A stretch of DNA of 64,000 bases from NCBI GenBank assembly GCA_002433485.1, contig DJIF01000130.1, positions 26,553 to 90,552 on the forward strand, in the 5' to 3' direction. The first letter of the stretch is position 1, and each line of letters opens with the position of its first letter. This stretch comes from Deltaproteobacteria bacterium UBA6601. GTDB lineage: Bacteria; Myxococcota_A; UBA796; UBA9615. The notes under the pieces were generated by a model that searched no databases, had not been told where the DNA came from, and was given only the letters and a program-made list of their open reading frames with translations. A program made the translations under genes and the position numbers. Positions 55,002-64,000 of this stretch are shown here, piece by piece.

Positions 55002-57347
55002 TTGACCAGTAAAAATACTGCCAGCGGCTATACGCCACCGGGTTTGCCGGTCCTGTTCTACCTGCCCACCCTGCTGTTGGTGATTCTGCTGCAAGCTGGA
55101 TTATCAGGGGTCCTGGTTTGGGGCATCCTTTGCTATCTGGGTGCCGAACGATTCTTCCCTCGCCGCCCCCGCAGACATCTGGCGGGAGTAGTCTTGAATC
55201 TATTCGGCGCGGTCTGCATCATCTTTCTGACCGCAAATGGCGTGCGTCCCTTGGCACTGCTCCTGTTTGTGCCGGGCATCGTGTTGGCGGGGGTTCCGCC
55301 GCTGCTATCTCCTACCGCCCGATCGCGTATTGAGGCCGCTCCCATCAGTTGCGCGATGCTCTCTATGCTGAGTGTGCTTGGCCTCTACAGTCTGGGCGTC
55401 TGGCAAGGTTCTCTGCCGGCGATCAACGACGATTTTCTGTTTGAGTTGCGTCAGGATGAGAGTCCCGAGCCGCTCAGCGAGGCTGAGCGGCTGGCAGCCA
55501 TGGCGGTGGTTGATGCGGTCTTAGGTGGCGCCGACCTCGACATCAACAGTCTGCCCGCACGGCTCGGCTCCAAACACTACGGAAGAGTTTGGGTGACTTT
55601 GTACCGCAATTCGGTAAAGGATCGCTGGTTGCGCGGTGAATCGCCGCCCCACAAGCCCCTTTATGGTCAGATCGCGTTGGCGGCTCGGAGCGCCATGGAG
55701 CAAAGCAAGACTGCGCATGGCTGGCAGCAGGGTGAGGAGTTGCGGGTTCAAATCGACCTTGGCGGACCGGAGACTGAGATCCTACCCAACTTGTTGCGTA
55801 GCGGCCTGCGCAAGCTTATCGCCAGCTTTACCGGCGGCCGTCCGCACTGGGATCTGTTGGTCTACCGCACGGAGCCAGGGGTGGTCGGTCTACGCATGAA
55901 CGGCGATGGTGGTGCTGGGGTGGTTCTGCCCGGCGATGTGACCAGCGACTCGCTGCTCACGCCTCGATCACTCAAACGGCGCTATCGAACCGACAACTTT
56001 GAGGCGGTCTGGAACGAACTCAGTCGCCGAGCTCAGCAGCCCAAGGCAGAGCCGGGCTCCTTGCCATTCTGGACCTTCAGAACCTACTCCTTTGTCCGTC
56101 CGCTGCCTGCTGAACCGAGAACCGTGGAGCTGTTTCGAGGCAATGTTCTGGGGCCAGAGCAGGTGGACGAGCGGATCCTTCTTGACGCAATCGACCGCGC
56201 AGGCCGTTGGCTGCTCGAGCAGGTGGAGGAAGATGGGCGCTTCGACTACCAATACTTCCCCTCTAGCGACAGTCACGGCAAGGGCTACAACGAAGTGCGC
56301 CATGCAGGTTCCGTATATGGCCTCTTCCACATGGCTGACCTGTGCGCCCAGGAGCCCAGCCTGAGATCTCAGCGAGACGCCTATTTGAATGCAGGCACCC
56401 TTGCTATGGAGCGGGTCTACCGCAACCTGGGAACGCCACCAGGCATGCCGGCAGAACGGGGCTATGTAACCTTTCTCGAAGGCAAGCGCGGACGTAAGAG
56501 CAACTCCGGTTCGCCAGCCTTAACCTTGCTCGGCTTCTTGATGCGTCCCGCGCCCGCAGATGTGAGCTCACCCGAACTCCAGTCGAAGGTCTGGAAGGAA
56601 GGTGATGAGGCGATTATGGAGGGGTTAGCGAAGACGCTGCTGCACATGATCGATGACGACGGCAAGGTCTATCGATTGTGGAAGGAGGCCCTCGAAGGCG
56701 GGGGAGTCGTCAAGGAACCCCTTTACTTTCCTGGCGAGGTGATGCTGGCACTGGCGCGCTACTACGAGAGGACCGGAGATGAAGTTTGGCTGGAGGGGGC
56801 GCGGTCGATCGGCCGACGCCAGATTCGTCATGCCCGCAAGCCCTGGGTAGTGCCTGATCACTGGGTCATGCAAGCCCTGGACATTCTGGACCGAACCGAC
56901 CCCGGTAACGACGAATGGCGCTCCGGCGCATATGCCATGGGAGCCCGGTACGTGCGCGAGCAGTTCCCACCCCAGCGCCCCCCTTTCTCAGACTACATCG
57001 GCGCCTTTCGGCGGGTTCAGGAAGTCCCGAGGACGACCCGTGCGGCGGCTCGCGGTGAGGCCATCGGAGGAGTGGTCAGAATTGCTTGGCGCGCGGGCCA
57101 TCCAAGCTGGCAGTGGGAGCGCTCACTTATTGAAGGATCTCGACATCTTATCGAACAAATGTTTACGTCTGACAATAGCTATTTCATGGCCAACCCCGCC
57201 GAGGCGAAAGGAGCGGTGCGAATGGGCATTGTCGACACCCACTGTCGCATCGACAACAATCAACACGCAGTGGTCGCCCTAAGCAACGCCTTGACTGCGC
57301 TTCGTCATCGCAGGCCCGGCTGGGGCGGTCGCGGAGAGGGCCCTTGA
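55002..57347 (+). CDS. polytopic membrane protein with AMMECR1-like middle domain and C-terminal (alpha/alpha)6-toroid-like domain
   Basis: About 5 TM helices in residues 1-150. Residues approximately 180-340 match the AMMECR1 pattern (RVWVTLYRN…WLRGESPP…GLRMNGDGGAGVVLPGDV…W) but with Cys of LRGCIG replaced. C-terminal approximately 430 aa is helix-rich with paired-helix periodicity. Unassigned family. Confidence 0.5.
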   Translation: MTSKNTASGYTPPGLPVLFYLPTLLLVILLQAGLSGVLVWGILCYLGAERFFPRRPRRHLAGVVLNLFGAVCIIFLTANGVRPLALLLFVPGIVLAGVPPLLSPTARSRIEAAPISCAMLSMLSVLGLYSLGVWQGSLPAINDDFLFELRQDESPEPLSEAERLAAMAVVDAVLGGADLDINSLPARLGSKHYGRVWVTLYRNSVKDRWLRGESPPHKPLYGQIALAARSAMEQSKTAHGWQQGEELRVQIDLGGPETEILPNLLRSGLRKLIASFTGGRPHWDLLVYRTEPGVVGLRMNGDGGAGVVLPGDVTSDSLLTPRSLKRRYRTDNFEAVWNELSRRAQQPKAEPGSLPFWTFRTYSFVRPLPAEPRTVELFRGNVLGPEQVDERILLDAIDRAGRWLLEQVEEDGRFDYQYFPSSDSHGKGYNEVRHAGSVYGLFHMADLCAQEPSLRSQRDAYLNAGTLAMERVYRNLGTPPGMPAERGYVTFLEGKRGRKSNSGSPALTLLGFLMRPAPADVSSPELQSKVWKEGDEAIMEGLAKTLLHMIDDDGKVYRLWKEALEGGGVVKEPLYFPGEVMLALARYYERTGDEVWLEGARSIGRRQIRHARKPWVVPDHWVMQALDILDRTDPGNDEWRSGAYAMGARYVREQFPPQRPPFSDYIGAFRRVQEVPRTTRAAARGEAIGGVVRIAWRAGHPSWQWERSLIEGSRHLIEQMFTSDNSYFMANPAEAKGAVRMGIVDTHCRIDNNQHAVVALSNALTALRHRRPGWGGRGEGP

Positions 57348-58867
57348 TGGAGGAGCCCTGCAGGCTTCCATCACCGACACAGGCTGCAACGACGGGGATG
57401 CTGGCGGTTTTCCTGGTGGCCATTGGTTTCGCCACCCAAACCATCGCTCGCGACAACCCTGCAGGTAGCGAGCTGCAAGGCGCATCCGCACTGGCCAGGC
57501 AGGTGGCAAGAGGGACCGGTCAGGTGTTGGGGGGTGGGGGGCTCTCGGCGCCGCAACTGGGGATGACCCTGGTCTCCGGCGCGGGGGATGTGGTCCAGTT
57601 GGATGAGCTGATTGCAGCTGGTCCAGCGGTGTTGTTCTATTTCAGCGCTGGGTGCTCTCATTGCGAAGAGGTCGCCCCGGAGATTGGCAGGCTCGGTCAG
57701 CGACTCAATGCGGATGCAGCGCTGATCGCGATCGCCAGTGGCAGCAATAGCCTCAGCGCAGCGCGCGACTTTGTGGCCCGTCATCAACTACCCGGATCTG
57801 TTTACAAGGACTTCAGTCGTCAATTCAGTTCTCGAAATCGCCTGCAATCGACCCCCAGCGTGTTGCTGACCGCTCCCTCCCCTGAGCCCGGCGGGTTCGA
57901 GACTCTGGCCGAATACCGCCCCTTTGCACCAGGCATGTCGCTGCTGGTCGAGATGCGCCTGGCCAGCCATCTCGGGGAGGACCCCTGGTCCCGAGTGGAA
58001 CAGGGCCAGTACTACGGCCCCAAGGCCTGCGGTGCCTGCCATCTTGACGAGTACATGTCCTGGGGCTTGAGTCACCACTCCATTGCCTATTGGACCTTGC
58101 ACAAAGGGCAGCGAGCAGAGGACCCCGCCTGTGTTGGGTGTCATGTCACAGGTATGGGAGAGCCCTCAGGCTTTGTGCTTGGAGATCATCACTCGCCCCT
58201 TGCAGATGTTGGGTGTGAGGCTTGCCATGGACCCGGTGGCGCCCACGGCGGATCGAGCAGGGACCCAAAGCTTTCGTGTGAGACCTGCCACGACAAGGAC
58301 CACTCGGTTCGATTTGACCTGGAACGTGCCTTACCGCATGTCGACCACTTTCGGCCCGAGATCCTGGAACCGGTGGCGTATCGAGAGCTTCGTCAGGCCC
58401 TTGTCGATGGTCGCGCTGAGCGGCCGCTAATGGCCTTTCCAAAAGGCAAGCATCTGGGCCAGGGAGCTTGTGTTTCCTGTCACCCGGCAGCCAGCAAGGG
58501 ATGGCGCAGCGGTCCTCATGCGGGCGCCTTGAAGACGCTCACCAAAAGAAACGCACAGCACAACCCAGAGTGCATCTCCTGCCATGACCTGGCGCGAGAT
58601 TCAGATGCGGCAGAACGGGGCTACTTCGGCGAAGGTGTGTCCTGTGAGAGTTGCCACGGCCCCGGCGAGCAACATGTGGCGGCCAGAGGTGGCACCGACA
58701 ACATCCTTGGGCTGGGAAGCTCCTGTCCTGAGTGCATTATTGAGGCTCTATGTACGAGCTGTCACACTCCTGAGCAGGACCCGAGCTGGAGCCTGACGGG
58801 GGATCTCGATCGACTGAAACGTTGGCATCGCGCTCCTGCCCCTGCTCGACGACCAGCTTCACCTTGA
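57344..58867 (+). CDS. thioredoxin-fold (TlpA/ResA-like CxxC) domain fused to octahaem c-type cytochrome
   Basis: N-terminal hydrophobic anchor, Trx-like FYFSAGCSHCEEVAPE, then eight CxxCH motifs (CGACH, CVGCH, CEACH, CETCH, CVSCH, CISCH, CESCH, CTSCH). ATGA overlap with upstream gene. Confidence 0.65.
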   Translation: MMEEPCRLPSPTQAATTGMLAVFLVAIGFATQTIARDNPAGSELQGASALARQVARGTGQVLGGGGLSAPQLGMTLVSGAGDVVQLDELIAAGPAVLFYFSAGCSHCEEVAPEIGRLGQRLNADAALIAIASGSNSLSAARDFVARHQLPGSVYKDFSRQFSSRNRLQSTPSVLLTAPSPEPGGFETLAEYRPFAPGMSLLVEMRLASHLGEDPWSRVEQGQYYGPKACGACHLDEYMSWGLSHHSIAYWTLHKGQRAEDPACVGCHVTGMGEPSGFVLGDHHSPLADVGCEACHGPGGAHGGSSRDPKLSCETCHDKDHSVRFDLERALPHVDHFRPEILEPVAYRELRQALVDGRAERPLMAFPKGKHLGQGACVSCHPAASKGWRSGPHAGALKTLTKRNAQHNPECISCHDLARDSDAAERGYFGEGVSCESCHGPGEQHVAARGGTDNILGLGSSCPECIIEALCTSCHTPEQDPSWSLTGDLDRLKRWHRAPAPARRPASP

Positions 58868-61415
58868 GCATTTCGGCCACCGCCGGCAGAAGTTGTTCGG
58901 CATTGGCCTTGAGCTTGCGAGTACCTTCCGGCAGCGACGCAAGAAAGCGTCGACCATAACTACGTCGATGGATGCGCGAGTCGAGCACCAGCACCACCCC
59001 TGAATCGGTGCGGTGTCGAATCAGTCGGCCAAAGCCCTGCCGGAAGCGCAGCACCGCTTGTGGCACCGCCAGAGCGCGGAAGGGATCAAGCCCCCGACGT
59101 TGGAGCAGCTCTGCCCTTGCCACCTGAATGGGATCGGTAGGCACCCGGAACGGCAAGCGCGGAATGATAACCACCTTAAGGGCATCACCACGCACATCGA
59201 CTCCCTCCCAGAACGAATCCGTGCCGCACAGAACTGCCTTGCCGGCGTCTCGAAACAGTGTGAGGAGTCGTTCCCGGGGAAGGTCACCCTGGCGCAGAAT
59301 CGAGTACCTCGGTCCCAGCTTGTGGCTCAGCCGCGAGGAGACCTGGCGCAACATTCGGTATGAGGTAAACAGCACAAAACAGCGCCCCTCACTGAGAGTC
59401 GCAACCCGCGCAACCAGCTCAACCACAGCTTCCAGGTGACCCGCTTCATTGGGCTCAGGAAAGTCGCTTGGCAGCCCCACCAGCGCCTGGCGACTGTAGT
59501 CAAAGGGCGAGCGAATGGTCAGGGTGCGTAGGCGTTCCTGAGCATCCTCTTGTCGCCCAAGGCCGGTGCGATCCAAGAAGTGATCAAAGCTATTGGCAAC
59601 CGACAACGTAGCTGAGGTGAGCACCAGCGAACGGCTGCCCTCCACCAACAGCTCGCGGATGATCTCCTCGACGTCGACCGGGCGTAACGAGAACCGGGCA
59701 CTTGGGACATCGTCGTCGGCGCTTTGAACCTGCCCCCAACGAACCGTCTGCGGGTCCTCCGGCAGCATGCGACCCAGCGAAGAAGCGGCATCTACCAGTC
59801 GTCGCTGCACCGTGGCCATATCCAGATCAACCTGCCGAAATCGGCTTCGAAATGCCTGCGGCATGTCTTCTAGATGGCTGCGGACAATGCCAACCTTCTG
59901 TGCGGTTCGGGTGAGAGATGCTGCAAGCTCATCAAAGCGCTCGTTGAGACGCTCGAACAAGGCGGGACGAGCGTCGTGGAGCTGGTCGTCAAAGCGAAAG
60001 CTACCGGACCTGGATGCTCCTGCCCTCCCCGAGCGAGCCAGCTGGTCCCCTTCCAGATCGGCTTCGTTGACTGCCTCGAGCAGATCCCAACCTACATCCT
60101 CAAGGTGTAACCGCGCCTTCTCCCTGCAGCGTTCAGTAGCTTCCAGCAGAGAGTCCAGGGCTTTGGCCAGATTGAGTTCTTCATCCTCACTGCCAGCCCC
60201 TTCCAGCCCCTGCCGAAGTCGCACAGCCAGCCCCTTGCGCCGACCGCGAACCGGACGAAGCCGGCCCAGTTGCCGCAGAATCCCGCGCCCGGTGACATCC
60301 CTGCCGGCGAAGTCAGTCGCCACATCTTCGATGTGATGGGCCTCGTCGAGGACGATGTGGTCGTAGCGAGGCAGGAGCCCACCAGGGACGCCCTGCAGGC
60401 GAAGCCCCAGATCGGCGAGCAGCAGGTGATGATTGACCACCAGCACCTGTGCCTTAGCGGCCTGGCGTCGACTCTGATAGTAGAAGCAGCTGTTGTAGTG
60501 CTTACAGCGGGCCCTGAGACTGTGCTCGGTAGAGCTCTCTACACGTTCCCATAAAGAGTGGTCTGGGACGAAGGGCAGGTCGTCCCGCTCGCCATTGGGG
60601 GTGACTGCCGACCAGCGCTCCAGCTCCTCGAGGAAAGCGCGTTCTTCAGGTTCTGCATCTTCGCGCGCTTCCGACAGCCGGTCCTCCAGCTTTCGTCGGC
60701 ACAAATAGTTACTTCGACCCTTCAATATAGCCAGTTCAAGTTCTGGAAAAAGCTCTTTAATTACTGGCGCATCATGGTCCACGAGCTGCTGCTGGAGATT
60801 GCGCGTTCTGGTCGCGACGGCCACTCGCTCGCCACCCTGCAGCGCGCGCAGCACACTGGGCACCAGATAAGCCAGCGACTTCCCGGTGCCGGTACCAGCC
60901 TCAACGACCAGCACCGCGCCATCGTTCTGAGCGCTGGCCACTGCCTCTGCCATTTCCAGCTGTTCTGCGCGGGGCTCATAGCCAGGAAGCCGCGCTCTCA
61001 GGCCTTGGTCGCCCTCAAACACAGCCCGAACCTCAGCGCTGCTGATGTCCCTACGGGTGGTCTTCGGTGGCTCTACAACTACGTAGACCTCGCTGGCCTG
61101 GTTGTTGACGATGAAGAAGCCAATCCCTTCCTGGCCATAGTGGGCGGCGAGGGCTAAATCGGCATCGGATGGGGCCAGAACCCCCGAAGGGTGGTTGTGA
61201 ATAATGACCTCGCCGCTGCGGCCCACCTGCTTTAGTGCGGGCACAGCCCCCTGGTTGCCGCGACAGAAAACTTCTACTTCTGTGACCTTGCCGACTCCCC
61301 CACGGCGCCCCACAAAGAACACTTCGTTGCCACCCGCTCGGTCGATCTCCGTGGCCAGCTCAGTGCGGGCCGCAGGCTGTATGTAGTGGCCGATTGGTGG
61401 ACTTGATGGTGGCAC
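58737..61415 (-). CDS. DinG/Rad3-family ATP-dependent DNA helicase with N-terminal RadC-like JAB/MPN domain
   Basis: N-terminal approximately 130 aa: RadC-JAB signature …EVIIHNHPSGVLAPSDADLALA…. Helicase motif I EAGTGTGKSLAYL, DEAH box VLDEAHHIED, three Cys in the Fe-S insertion region (LCRRK…RARCKHYNSCFY), C-terminal RecA-like domain. Confidence 0.75.
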   Translation of the reverse strand: MPPSSPPIGHYIQPAARTELATEIDRAGGNEVFFVGRRGGVGKVTEVEVFCRGNQGAVPALKQVGRSGEVIIHNHPSGVLAPSDADLALAAHYGQEGIGFFIVNNQASEVYVVVEPPKTTRRDISSAEVRAVFEGDQGLRARLPGYEPRAEQLEMAEAVASAQNDGAVLVVEAGTGTGKSLAYLVPSVLRALQGGERVAVATRTRNLQQQLVDHDAPVIKELFPELELAILKGRSNYLCRRKLEDRLSEAREDAEPEERAFLEELERWSAVTPNGERDDLPFVPDHSLWERVESSTEHSLRARCKHYNSCFYYQSRRQAAKAQVLVVNHHLLLADLGLRLQGVPGGLLPRYDHIVLDEAHHIEDVATDFAGRDVTGRGILRQLGRLRPVRGRRKGLAVRLRQGLEGAGSEDEELNLAKALDSLLEATERCREKARLHLEDVGWDLLEAVNEADLEGDQLARSGRAGASRSGSFRFDDQLHDARPALFERLNERFDELAASLTRTAQKVGIVRSHLEDMPQAFRSRFRQVDLDMATVQRRLVDAASSLGRMLPEDPQTVRWGQVQSADDDVPSARFSLRPVDVEEIIRELLVEGSRSLVLTSATLSVANSFDHFLDRTGLGRQEDAQERLRTLTIRSPFDYSRQALVGLPSDFPEPNEAGHLEAVVELVARVATLSEGRCFVLFTSYRMLRQVSSRLSHKLGPRYSILRQGDLPRERLLTLFRDAGKAVLCGTDSFWEGVDVRGDALKVVIIPRLPFRVPTDPIQVARAELLQRRGLDPFRALAVPQAVLRFRQGFGRLIRHRTDSGVVLVLDSRIHRRSYGRRFLASLPEGTRKLKANAEQLLPAVAEMLKVKLVVEQGQERDANVSVDRDPPSGSSSGPAQECDSSYIEPQ

Positions 61416-61497
61416 CGGCGAAGCCTAGCTTGAAAGCAAGCCGCGCGGCTGTGTGTGAGCTGCTAAAAGGTCGGCAACTCATCGTTATGGAATTCCT

Positions 61498-62400
61498 GTG
61501 ACCACTAATGCCGCACATCTTTCCGCAGCTCGGGATTCCCTGCGCGGCCGGGTCGCGATAGTTGGTGTGGGGCAATTGGGACGAGCGCTATTGCGCGAAT
61601 TTTCGGCCGCGGGACTCGGCCCTCTGCGGGCCTGGAATCGCAGCGCGCTTGAACCAAAACCGCCGATCTCAGATGTTGATTGGAGTTTTGGCGGGCTGGC
61701 TCCCGATCCCGCCTGGCTGAACACTGCTTCTGTGGTCCTCCTCTGTGTGCGGGATGACGCGATCGGCGAATGTTCCGCCCGCTTGAGCCTTCCTGCCGGG
61801 ACCAGCCTTATGCACTGTTCAGGGGCTCGAGGCAGCGACGAGCTCCAAAGCAGCGATCTGGTCCACCGGGGCAGCTATCACCCGCTCCAGTCATTCTCTG
61901 ACTGGAGCCCTCTGGGTGACCTAGTTCCGCCCTATGCGGTCGCTTTAGAGGGAGATCCTGAGGCTTTAGACGTGGGCCGGCGGCTGGCCCTGGCAACCGG
62001 GCACCACTCGGTTCAACTGAGCGCGGTCGAAAAGCCCCGATATCACGCCGCGGCGGTTCTCGCTTCCAACTGCCTTGTTGCTCTGCAGAGCGCCGCGGTG
62101 CGAGTTATGCAGGGCTGCACTACAGATGAACAGCAGGCAATCGAGTTGCTTTGGCCTCTGGTACTGGGAACCATCGCCGGACTCGATGGCGGGCGGCCGA
62201 GCGAGGCGATTACCGGACCGGTCATCCGAGGAGATGTAGCTACGGTGCGCGACAATCTGGCCGCGCTGCAAGACGACCCCTCTGCGCGGACCCTGTATGT
62301 GGCTCTTAGCAGGGAAGCGCTGGCGCTCTCAGGCGCTCGAGTCAGCGATGAACTTCACGCTCAGCTGGTCGAACTGTTCACCCAGGTTGCGGAGGACTAG
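61498..62400 (+). CDS. Rossmann-fold NAD(P)-binding protein with DUF2520-like C-terminal domain
   Basis: N-terminal VAIVGVGQLGRAL dinucleotide motif. C-terminal pattern recalling the ProC/ApbA-related DUF2520 proteins. Assignment by resemblance only. Confidence 0.5.
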   Translation: MTTNAAHLSAARDSLRGRVAIVGVGQLGRALLREFSAAGLGPLRAWNRSALEPKPPISDVDWSFGGLAPDPAWLNTASVVLLCVRDDAIGECSARLSLPAGTSLMHCSGARGSDELQSSDLVHRGSYHPLQSFSDWSPLGDLVPPYAVALEGDPEALDVGRRLALATGHHSVQLSAVEKPRYHAAAVLASNCLVALQSAAVRVMQGCTTDEQQAIELLWPLVLGTIAGLDGGRPSEAITGPVIRGDVATVRDNLAALQDDPSARTLYVALSREALALSGARVSDELHAQLVELFTQVAED

Positions 62401-62713: not shown

Positions 62714-62790
62714 TGGTGGAGTCGGCGGGATTCGAACCCACGGCCTCTGGCTTCGGAGGCCAGCGCTCTATCCAACTGAGCTACGACTCC
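62714..62790 (-). tRNA. tRNA-Arg (anticodon CCG)
   Basis: Reverse complement folds as GGAGTCG/TA/GCTC-AGTTGGATA-GAGC/G/CTGGC-CTCCGAA-GCCAG/AGGCC/GTGGG-TTCGAAT-CCCGC/CGACTCC/ACCA. 7-bp acceptor stem, GTTCGAAT T-loop, encoded CCA. Confidence 0.85.
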
Positions 62791-62864: not shown

Positions 62865-64000
62865 TCAAGCCTGTCCGATCCACTCGCGGATAGACGGGAG
62901 GTGGCGGCCGCTCCACTGATCATCCAGGCGCTGCTCACAGAACCGTACAAACAAGGCATCCACGATTCCCCACGCCTCCTCCAGCAGAAACATTCGCTCA
63001 TAGAGCTGCTCTTCGCCAGGATCTTTGCATTCAGCAGGGACCTTCAGTCCACCCATTTGCAGACCTTCGCCGCGGAATTCCAACGAGTACTCGCGTTCCT
63101 TGATGCGCAATCCAAGCCGGGCCGACTCAATGGTCTTGCCCGCAGCGAGTGCCGTGCGGGCTTCCAGGGTAGTGGCCGGGGCGCCGCCCTTGAGGTCGCT
63201 GACTTGAGGCTTGTCGTCCGAGGTGCTGAAGCGGATGCGGTCATCGATCCAGAAGTCAACAGAGCCGTAATGGGGCAGCTCCATGTTGGCGAATCCTTGC
63301 TCGCTCTGCCACCACAACCAGATGAGAAACTCACGGCCCATGAAGGTGTCGGCGGCATGCTCTCCGATGGCATTGGCTGAACTGGAAATGTGGATCATGC
63401 TCGGTGCTCCGTTCGGTAGTCAGAGTGGCCGGTGGCATCGAGACGGTGGAGCCACGTGTCCACTAAAGGATGCCGGCCCATCGCACCGACCACGCCGACC
63501 GGGACCAGATCTAGGTCAAAGGTCTGGCCAAAACGGTGGCGAAAGGATTCGTTTACCTTGCGACTGTTCGAGAAGAACCAAACCCTGTGGTTGGCGAGAT
63601 CCCAGCAGATGTCATGGGCATTTACGCTGGGCAGCTGTTGCGGCAGTAGTTCGAGTTCAAGCTGTTCCTTGAGTTCGCGCTTCACCCGACTGGGAATGCG
63701 GTCAGCGCCACGTTCCTTCATCCAATTGTCGGCCCGCAGTTCAAGCTCCGCCCGCACCAGCTTGGCGGGCAGGCGCTTGTTGTCGACGCGCAGTGCAAAA
63801 CACAGGTACTGGCTATAGGCGCTGTCTTCGGAGCTGAACTCTGTGACGCACAGATTATGGAGATTGACCCAACCAAGAGTCTCTCCTGAGGTGGCCTTGG
63901 AAAAAGGTTCCTTAAAGGCGTTCTCATTGAGCCGCTGGATCAGGTCATCCCGCTGCAGATCGTCGGGAGGATCGACGACCTGATAACGATTGGCGCCCAT
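62865..64000 (-). pseudogene. rdgC: rdgC (recombination-associated protein RdgC) interrupted by a frameshift: two overlapping ORFs 63395..64000 and 62865..63398
   Basis: ORF 63395..64000 aligns to RdgC residues 1-~170 (…GWV…, LCFALRVDNKRLPAKLVRAEL cf. ICARKEEKILPSPVIKQAL). ORF 62865..63398 aligns to the C-terminal half from approximately residue 175 (EFLIWLWWQSEQGF cf. ELTLTEWVRSGSAPQGF). The two share only a 4-nt ATGA overlap in different frames. It could equally be a sequencing indel. Confidence 0.45.

Follow-up and report, generated by a model that had tools for sequence, protein, structure and literature searches.

A RadC-like DinG helicase with an N-terminal JAB domain, and its convergent overlap with an octahaem cytochrome gene, in a deltaproteobacterial contig

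What is a protein that carries the metal-site motif of a JAB/JAMM hydrolase ahead of the motifs of a DNA helicase, what might its two modules do together, and does it matter that its gene runs at its 3' end into the gene next to it? These questions are raised by a minus-strand gene at positions 58737..61415 in a stretch of 64,000 nucleotides from Deltaproteobacteria bacterium UBA6601 (GCA_002433485.1, contig DJIF01000130.1, positions 26,553 to 90,552), the whole of which is called the window here. An earlier note had proposed that this gene encodes a RadC-like JAB domain fused to a DinG/Rad3-family Fe-S helicase, and the open reading frame (ORF) is exactly as it was described, with the JAMM string first and the Walker A and DEAH motifs downstream. 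We find that the product is an ordinary member of the described and widespread RadC-like DinG subgroup, that is, a YoaA/DinG-type helicase of the XPD family, in superfamily 2 (SF2), with an N-terminal RadC-type JAB/MPN+ domain. This identity, a motor that would deliver a JAB hydrolase, and an overlap of two non-conserved gene tails together make up an explanation of the locus in which, taken as a whole, we are fairly confident.

The gene is complete, encoding 892 amino acids between a GTG start and a TAA stop in the six-frame ORF list, and contigs from three samples (ERZ8578527, SRR5321461, ERZ11848501) call an identical 892-aa product. The full-length AlphaFold2 model has a pLDDT of 89.5 and a pTM of 0.88; because this pTM is reached for a multidomain chain of 892 residues, the model suggests that the JAB domain packs against the motor in one compact body instead of dangling from it. 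An identical protein has been deposited in NCBI under the accession MBJ94381.1 and the name 'helicase [Rickettsiales bacterium]'; it was taken from a marine metagenome-assembled genome (MAG), and its mate in a 90%-identity cluster comes from a Tara Oceans scaffold. The Rickettsiales label of that MAG looks doubtful: the window is ~60% GC, and the nearest species-level relatives of the gene are labelled Proteobacteria, Deltaproteobacteria and Myxococcota, as well as Rickettsiales.

The JAB/MPN+ (RadC-type) domain spans residues ~8–116 (61068..61394, minus strand, as are all parts of this gene given below). Residues 71–87 read IIHNHPSGVLAPSDADL and match the canonical JAMM pattern HxHx7Sx2D. The motif itself, H73-N-H75-PSGVLAP-S83-DA-D86 (61158..61199), is the predicted Zn site; H73, N74, H75, P76, S83 and D86 are invariant, and H73, H75, S83 and D86 are so in all three of our alignments (77, 69 and 55 sequences). 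The predicted general base is E31 (61323..61325, in the string GNEVFF), a role assigned by comparison with JAMM enzymes; it is invariant in the 69 full-length and the 55 cross-phylum sequences and at least 90% conserved in the third alignment. Among the 120 best full-length homologues (40–100% identity, 804–957 aa), every one has HNHxxGx4Sx2D at the same place. In the structure models the domain adopts a JAB fold, a central beta-sheet flanked by helices, and its structural neighbours are all peptidases or inactive paralogues of peptidases. Alignment and models thus bear out the claim of an N-terminal JAB fold (~115 residues) in which no metal ligand or catalytic residue (E31, H73, H75, S83, D86) is missing, and from the intact JAMM site Zn binding and hydrolysis would be predicted.

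How close is this domain to RadC itself? Searched against the sequences of the PDB, a profile of the family finds RadC (2QLC) as its best match, at 1.2e-06; the profile was needed because a search with the single N-terminal domain placed chance-level matches on top (a scavenger receptor), with RadC only at an E-value of 0.21. All 55 cross-phylum N-terminal domains match the Pfam RadC model PF04002 (E<=0.01, best 7.1e-10), and 23 of them also match Prok-JAB. The likeness to canonical RadC is confined to ~35 residues around the motif. The canonical RadC/YicR models PRK00024 and TIGR00608 score 19.0 bits against a cut-off of 180 and 15.9 bits against 133.85, matching ~21–26 residues around the motif, and there is no space ahead of residue 8 for a helix-hairpin-helix (HhH) module. 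As the score of the window protein lies just under the Pfam threshold and the similarity is limited to those ~35 residues, the domain is, on sequence comparison, a divergent RadC-type JAB domain and not a RadC orthologue. The domain search proposed in the earlier note accordingly divides: Helicase_C_2 and DEAD_2 match, and PF04002 stays just below its cut-off for the window protein, although 55 of 55 family members match it.

Behind the JAB domain a linker with one helix (residues 117–145, 60981..61067; helix 126–134 in the models) leads into the motor, and the alignment to E. coli DinG (EcDinG) starts within it, at query residue 137. Pfam matches on the whole protein are Helicase_C_2 (4.6e-45, residues 670–830), DEAD (2.3e-11, 158–236) and DEAD_2 (4.9e-06, 299–375). 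The helicase motif I and DEAH box that had been placed downstream of the JAMM motif are both there: motif I, or Walker A, is GTGTGKS at residues 174–180 (G174-TGTGK-S180, 60876..60896, within the DEAD match), with G174 to K179 invariant, and motif II is DEAH at 357–360 (60336..60347), with D357, E358 and H360 invariant. Superposition on DinG and XPD places an Arch-type helical insertion at residues ~396–560 (59736..60230, boundaries approximate), with long helices at 410–455, 484–516 and 527–548 in the model. The second motor domain (residues 670–830, 58926..59408) is the PF13307 match given above. Walker A, DEAH and motif VI are all kept, and the C-terminal helicase motifs are likewise invariant in a cross-homologue alignment. 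With Walker A, DEAH, Helicase_C_2 and the Arch insertion, the protein shows the features of an SF2 helicase of the XPD/Rad3/DinG family. Among NCBIfam models YoaA ranks first (3.9e-175, 584 bits), followed by DinG models, all under their equivalog cut-offs. Foldseek with the full-length model returns E. coli DinG 6FWR first (E 2.3e-38, TM 0.73 on target), followed by the S. aureus exonuclease-DinG structures 9II8 and 8ZEF, XPD and CasDinG. Judged by these alignments, both modules keep every residue required for activity, and ATP-dependent 5'->3' unwinding would be expected from homology to EcDinG and YoaA.

Is it also an Fe-S helicase? An Fe-S-type domain, located by alignment to EcDinG, covers residues 239–310 (60486..60701) and carries C239, S299, C304 and C310, a C-S-C-C and not a C-C-C-C set. 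In the sequence alignment C239, C304 and C310 face three of the four Fe-S-region cysteines of EcDinG, and Ser299 faces the second. We take the four EcDinG cluster ligands to be C120, C194, C199 and C205, the second being C194. The three cysteines of the window protein are invariant in 119 of 119 close homologues. At position 299, 83 of these have Thr, 30 have Cys and 6 have Ser, and in none of the 89 (75%) that lack Cys there does the domain hold a compensating cysteine. The Desulfuromonas-like clade retains the four-Cys set. The same homologues always have Asp or Glu at position 297, and 102 of the 119 have H306. Three-Cys variants have been counted as possible FeS domains in need of verification in a review that does not mention the C-T/S-C-C variant (PMC11981726). 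Binding of a [4Fe-4S] cluster by the window protein is thus possible; because it has only three cysteines and Ser299, the description 'Fe-S helicase' is plausible and not established. Of the original description, then, the DinG/XPD-type motor stands, and the Fe-S part holds only in part, three of the four usual cluster cysteines being present with S299 at the second place. That the three-cysteine variant dominates its clade is a small new detail that bears on whether such helicases bind a cluster at all.

How widespread is the fusion? A profile of the N-terminal domain, searched against 1.84 billion protein cluster representatives, matched 1446 of them at E<=1e-3, 606 at <=1e-10 and 319 at <=1e-30. 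To see whether the domain is fused or free, we examined those of the best 150 representatives that were newly returned, 143 in all: the full JAMM motif is present in 139, 75 are at least 780 aa and full length, and in 55 of the 68 shorter sequences the JAB domain is followed by a helicase Q-motif or Walker A, which marks them as truncated fusions. As the representatives are either full length or mostly fragments of fusions, this JAB subfamily occurs essentially only as a helicase fusion. The fusion is not a product of chance, since all 120 best homologues and 139 of 143 cluster representatives have the motif in the same place.

In contigs taken from one genome per species, 572 stretches encode a relative of the JAB domain. 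Motifs were examined in the best 80 of these: the JAMM motif is present in all 80, and DEAH follows ~285 residues downstream unless cut off by a contig end or an early stop (four cases). The fusion ORFs that end early inside the helicase part and away from contig ends (L022, L036, L066 and L085; 467, 352, 246 and 228 aa) may be frameshifts, pseudogenes or assembly errors. Lineage labels of the matches include Myxococcota, Desulfuromonadales/Geobacteraceae, Thermodesulfobacteriota, Spirochaetota/Treponema, Acidimicrobiia, Nitrospirota, KSB1, Binatia, Dadabacteria, Hydrogenedentota, Acidobacteriota and Zhuqueibacterota, among others. The fusion is found in hundreds of species in many phyla, and the JAMM motif is almost always kept.

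Nor is it new to the literature. RadC-JAB/DinG fusions were described in 2011 (Iyer et al., NAR; PMC3239186), and a 2025 review in Comput Struct Biotechnol J names the subgroup 'RadC-like DinG', with a protein from Desulfuromonas soudanensis as its model (PMC11981726). The same review finds the core of these proteins most YoaA-like, the C-terminal helix included, and HolC absent from organisms that have them (PMC11981726). The reservation that the fusion might prove to be a common and already characterised DinG subfamily thus applies by half: it is common, described and named, and according to the review it has never been studied experimentally (PMC11981726). With the architecture known since 2011 and named in 2025, what is new is the dominance of the three-Cys Fe-S variant and the lineage-specific overlap discussed below. 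As a discovery the locus is of little weight, the architecture being published and the protein deposited as MBJ94381.1. Its interest is of another kind: few bacterial domains of unassigned chemistry are as widespread as the RadC-type JAB domains, and with both active sites of the fusion invariant across many phyla it offers a clean system in which to ask whether protein or DNA is cut.

What, then, might the two modules do together? The motor would load on single-stranded DNA (ssDNA) and move 5'->3', as E. coli DinG and YoaA do, and the tethered JAB hydrolase would be delivered to whatever the motor meets. There it might hydrolyse, in a Zn-dependent manner, an amide bond (peptide or isopeptide) of a DNA-bound or DNA-linked protein. 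We suggest, by analogy, peptide or isopeptide hydrolysis of a DNA-bound protein as our tentative first choice, though it falls short of being probable, and rank nuclease action below it as a doubtful alternative. A peptidase is favoured because the complete peptidase constellation, Ser83 included, is invariant; because all structural neighbours are peptidases or inactive paralogues of peptidases; because, to our knowledge, no JAB nuclease has been demonstrated; and because the case for a nuclease is one of context only, which suits a DNA-targeted peptidase just as well. We likewise know of no JAB enzyme with a complete motif and known chemistry that is not a peptidase.

A narrower form of the peptidase reading, which we think unlikely as it stands, would make RadC-like DinG a single-chain machine for clearing protein roadblocks or DNA-protein crosslinks, with JAB as a DNA-directed metallopeptidase: the 5'->3' motor would run into a protein bound covalently or tightly to ssDNA, and the JAB domain would cut that protein. 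The eukaryotic helicase FANCJ, acting together with the protease SPRTN, would form a comparable pairing. If true, such clearance would be the first defined biochemical role for a RadC-type JAB domain. It is also conceivable that the JAB domain is no enzyme at all and serves as a regulatory, DNA-binding or protein-docking module, much as the Jab1/MPN domain of Prp8 regulates the Brr2 helicase. Because the JAMM site is invariant, such a non-catalytic role is disfavoured and in our estimate quite improbable; invariance of E31, H73, H75, S83 and D86 across phyla is the pattern expected of selection on catalysis, and regulatory MPN- domains have degenerate sites.

Several observations tell against the explanation preferred here, some of them in favour of a nuclease. 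On the nuclease reading RadC-like DinG would be a functional twin of exonuclease-DinG, with the JAB domain cutting the strand fed to it by the helicase; the JAB fold is one form of the deaminase-like fold, in which many families act on nucleotides. As the earlier note had stated, JAB sits at the place of the firmicute DnaQ-like exonuclease: S. aureus DinG matches structurally (8ZEF, 9II8), with 8ZEF aligning from residue 250 onward to query residue 147, so that the two accessory domains occupy the same N-terminal position. Iyer et al. argued from this parallel that the JAB domain might be a nuclease, since the fused helicases are closely related to versions with a 3'-5' exonuclease and the one domain would have displaced the other non-homologously, and they cited RadC-JAB fusions to HhH, primase, ArdC and DinG modules as context (PMC3239186). 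The analogy of an accessory nuclease or peptidase on a helicase, drawn anew in the earlier note, is right in substance and anticipated almost word for word in that paper (PMC3239186). Among the remaining counterpoints, PF04002 scores 19.4 bits on the whole window protein (residues 70–91) and 22.0 bits on the isolated domain against a gathering cut-off of 22.1; the polarity of the motor rests on homology; one cluster cysteine is missing, and Fe-S binding, too, is read from homology. Our neighbour survey, described below, found no ubiquitin-like or other candidate protein substrate encoded nearby, and literature searches returned no experimental work on RadC chemistry or on the fusion beyond two bioinformatic papers.

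Does the overlap at the 3' end have a function? The neighbour (57344..58867, plus strand, 507 aa) is, as had been claimed, a Trx-octahaem cytochrome gene: its product has a redoxin-like domain and eight CXXCH motifs (Pfam Cytochrome_C554, Cytochrome_C7 and AhpC-TSA). The overlap, put at about 130 nt in the earlier note, is 131 nt by the ORF list and translation (58737..58867). On the helicase side it takes in an acidic, Ser- and Pro-containing C-terminal tail (residues 862–892 and the stop codon, 58737..58832) that is non-conserved and predicted to be disordered, with pLDDT <50; on the cytochrome side the overlap contains the eighth CXXCH (CTSCH, 58751..58765), which runs antisense to the final ~10 codons of the helicase. 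Tails of both proteins vary in sequence between orthologues, those of the helicase also in length. Of the two explanations offered for the overlap, an over-called C-terminus fails: both ORF ends are set by stop codons that are the same in the contigs from the three samples, so that neither end is over-called and no assembly artefact is involved.

The other explanation, antisense coupling, finds little support in related loci. The convergent pair is present in seven loci and overlaps in two (131 nt in the window, 119 nt in L004); the remaining five, L006, L008, L009, L010 and L014, have gaps of 7, 8, 8, 12 and 182 nt, two of these loci being near-identical. A conserved antisense device is unlikely, since the overlap is absent in most related lineages. 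That the 131-nt overlap could act in the window by transcriptional interference or an RNA duplex is a reading to which we give very little credence. In its favour, the overlap is real, reproduced in independent assemblies and recurrent in one related lineage; the convergent adjacency of the two genes is conserved in the clade; and no intrinsic terminator-like site was found within the overlap or within ~350 nt of either stop codon. Against it, besides the gaps, the overlapped helicase residues are non-conserved and predicted to be disordered, and the cytochrome tail past the last haem motif is non-conserved with an atypical codon-position GC. Across 58797..58867 the GC values of the three codon positions agree with coding in the helicase frame (0.83/0.29/0.75) but not in the cytochrome frame (0.83/0.74/0.26), a comparison that rests on just 23–24 codons. 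A promoter and terminator scan of 58400-61700 gave counts at the level of shuffled sequence. Most simply, the two 3' ends would have lain almost end to end in the ancestor, and stop codons that shifted in one sub-lineage would have allowed two unconstrained tails to collide. L004 (8543..10171, minus strand) has, as does L005 at the corresponding place, an intact octahaem cytochrome ORF with 8 CXXCH that the JGI annotation does not call, likely because of its 119-nt overlap with the helicase gene.

The wider neighbourhood was surveyed by clustering all ORFs within 6 kb of the helicase gene in 83 loci. The window and orthologous loci share conserved housekeeping surroundings: on one side a divergent DUF2520 gene followed by RdgC, MazG and FxsA, and on the other the octahaem cytochrome, a 761–781-aa protein without a Pfam match in existing annotation or in our own scan, and MlaD/ABC genes. 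A partner (a ubiquitin-like protein, a nuclease or HolC) was sought across the 83 loci, and none is conserved across phyla; the only large neighbour cluster consists of generic two-component and sigma-54 signalling proteins in variable position and strand, and the rest is lineage-specific synteny. With cas genes absent and neighbours not conserved from phylum to phylum, the helicase gene looks like a stand-alone chromosomal gene without a conserved partner.

These surroundings also bear on a role in defence, in which the protein would resemble CasDinG of type IV CRISPR or belong to another helicase-based anti-phage system. PADLOC 'typeIV_DinG' models do match the helicase region (best 1.3e-131), and CasDinG structures are among the structural neighbours. 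The PADLOC match, however, amounts to generic DinG homology, and neighbouring genes have no PADLOC matches; they are housekeeping genes in conserved synteny (DUF2520, RdgC, MazG, cytochrome, Mla/ABC) with cas genes absent, a conserved partner is absent across 80 loci, and the Csf4 model TIGR03117 scores 119.6 bits against a cut-off of 400. We have therefore set the defence-island reading aside, as the least credible of those considered.

Some details of the neighbourhood deserve mention in their own right. An ORF of 781 aa (55002..57347, plus strand) has no Pfam or PADLOC match, and its end overlaps the start of the cytochrome gene by 4 nt, so that the two may be co-translated; ORFs of this type adjoin the cytochrome at 761–781 aa in orthologous loci. 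The RdgC gene (63395..64000, minus strand, cut by the window end) lies ~2 kb upstream of the helicase gene and is found in all close orthologous loci as well, a synteny limited to the window's clade. Between the DUF2520 gene and the genes on the RdgC side lies a tRNA-Arg(CCG) gene (62714..62790, minus strand), seen in the window only and the sole RNA gene found by Rfam and tRNA scans of the window. The intergenic region that separates the helicase start from the divergent DUF2520 gene holds a ~55-nt block (61416..61467), immediately ahead of the GTG, whose DNA is strongly conserved though the orthologous proteins are only ~70% identical. Its pattern is TAGCAGCT...CCGCGCGGC...CTTTC..G.TAG.CT.CGCC.GTG and includes the palindrome CCGCGCGG; it occurs only once in the window, and as RNA it shows no significant fold (z -1.64). 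Compared informally, by eye, with LexA-box consensus sequences, the block showed no match. It could be a promoter or an operator.

Set beside known systems, the window protein has a JAB domain that is 6–18% identical to the JAMM/MPN+ isopeptidases (Rpn11, CSN5, AfJAMM, PfJAMM1, CBASS Cap3 and BilC); it has no ubiquitin-like partner or conjugation genes near its gene, and peptidase activity has not been demonstrated for any RadC-type domain. From canonical RadC/YicR (2QLC) it differs in lacking the N-terminal HhH module fused to many RadC proteins (PMC3239186): only ~7 residues precede the JAB core, and a helicase is fused instead.

On the helicase side the best solved-structure relative, by sequence (5.5e-54) as well as by fold, is E. 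coli DinG (6FWR/6FWS), which, at ~25% identity, has the same helicase motifs, with its Fe-S domain in the matching place. EcDinG, in contrast, has no N-terminal hydrolase and has four cluster cysteines, and the NCBIfam DinG model gives the window protein 402.9 bits against a cut-off of 598. The best NCBIfam match of the helicase part is YoaA, the chi/HolC-associated DinG-like helicase of E. coli, at 584.1 bits and thus under the equivalog cut-off of 680 (NF053712); YoaA is without a JAB domain. The firmicute exonuclease-DinG of S. aureus (8ZEF/9II8) likewise carries an N-terminal accessory hydrolase on a DinG motor, and the helicase parts align at 2.4e-46. Its accessory domain, however, is a DnaQ-like 3'-5' exonuclease of RNase H fold where the window protein has JAB; the window protein has no match to an exonuclease family in Pfam, and PRK08074 and TIGR01407 match only in their helicase parts (model positions 239–929 and 243–887), under their cut-offs.

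The closest likeness is to the RadC-like DinG subgroup itself, with which the window protein shares its order of domains: a RadC-like JAB domain at the N-terminus, with E, HxH and D, then motor domain 1, FeS, Arch, motor domain 2 and a C-terminal helix (PMC11981726); the RadC-like domain is fused directly to the DinG-like helicase, and the E/H/H/D centre is conserved. It departs from the subgroup in its ~30-residue tail, predicted to be disordered, that overlaps the neighbouring gene, and from the four-Cys Desulfuromonas-like clade in the Ser/Thr that it and 75% of its close relatives have at the second Fe-S cysteine. Homologues labelled Desulfuromonas sp., the genus that also supplied the model protein of the review, align over 92–95% of the length, at 42–43% identity to the window protein.

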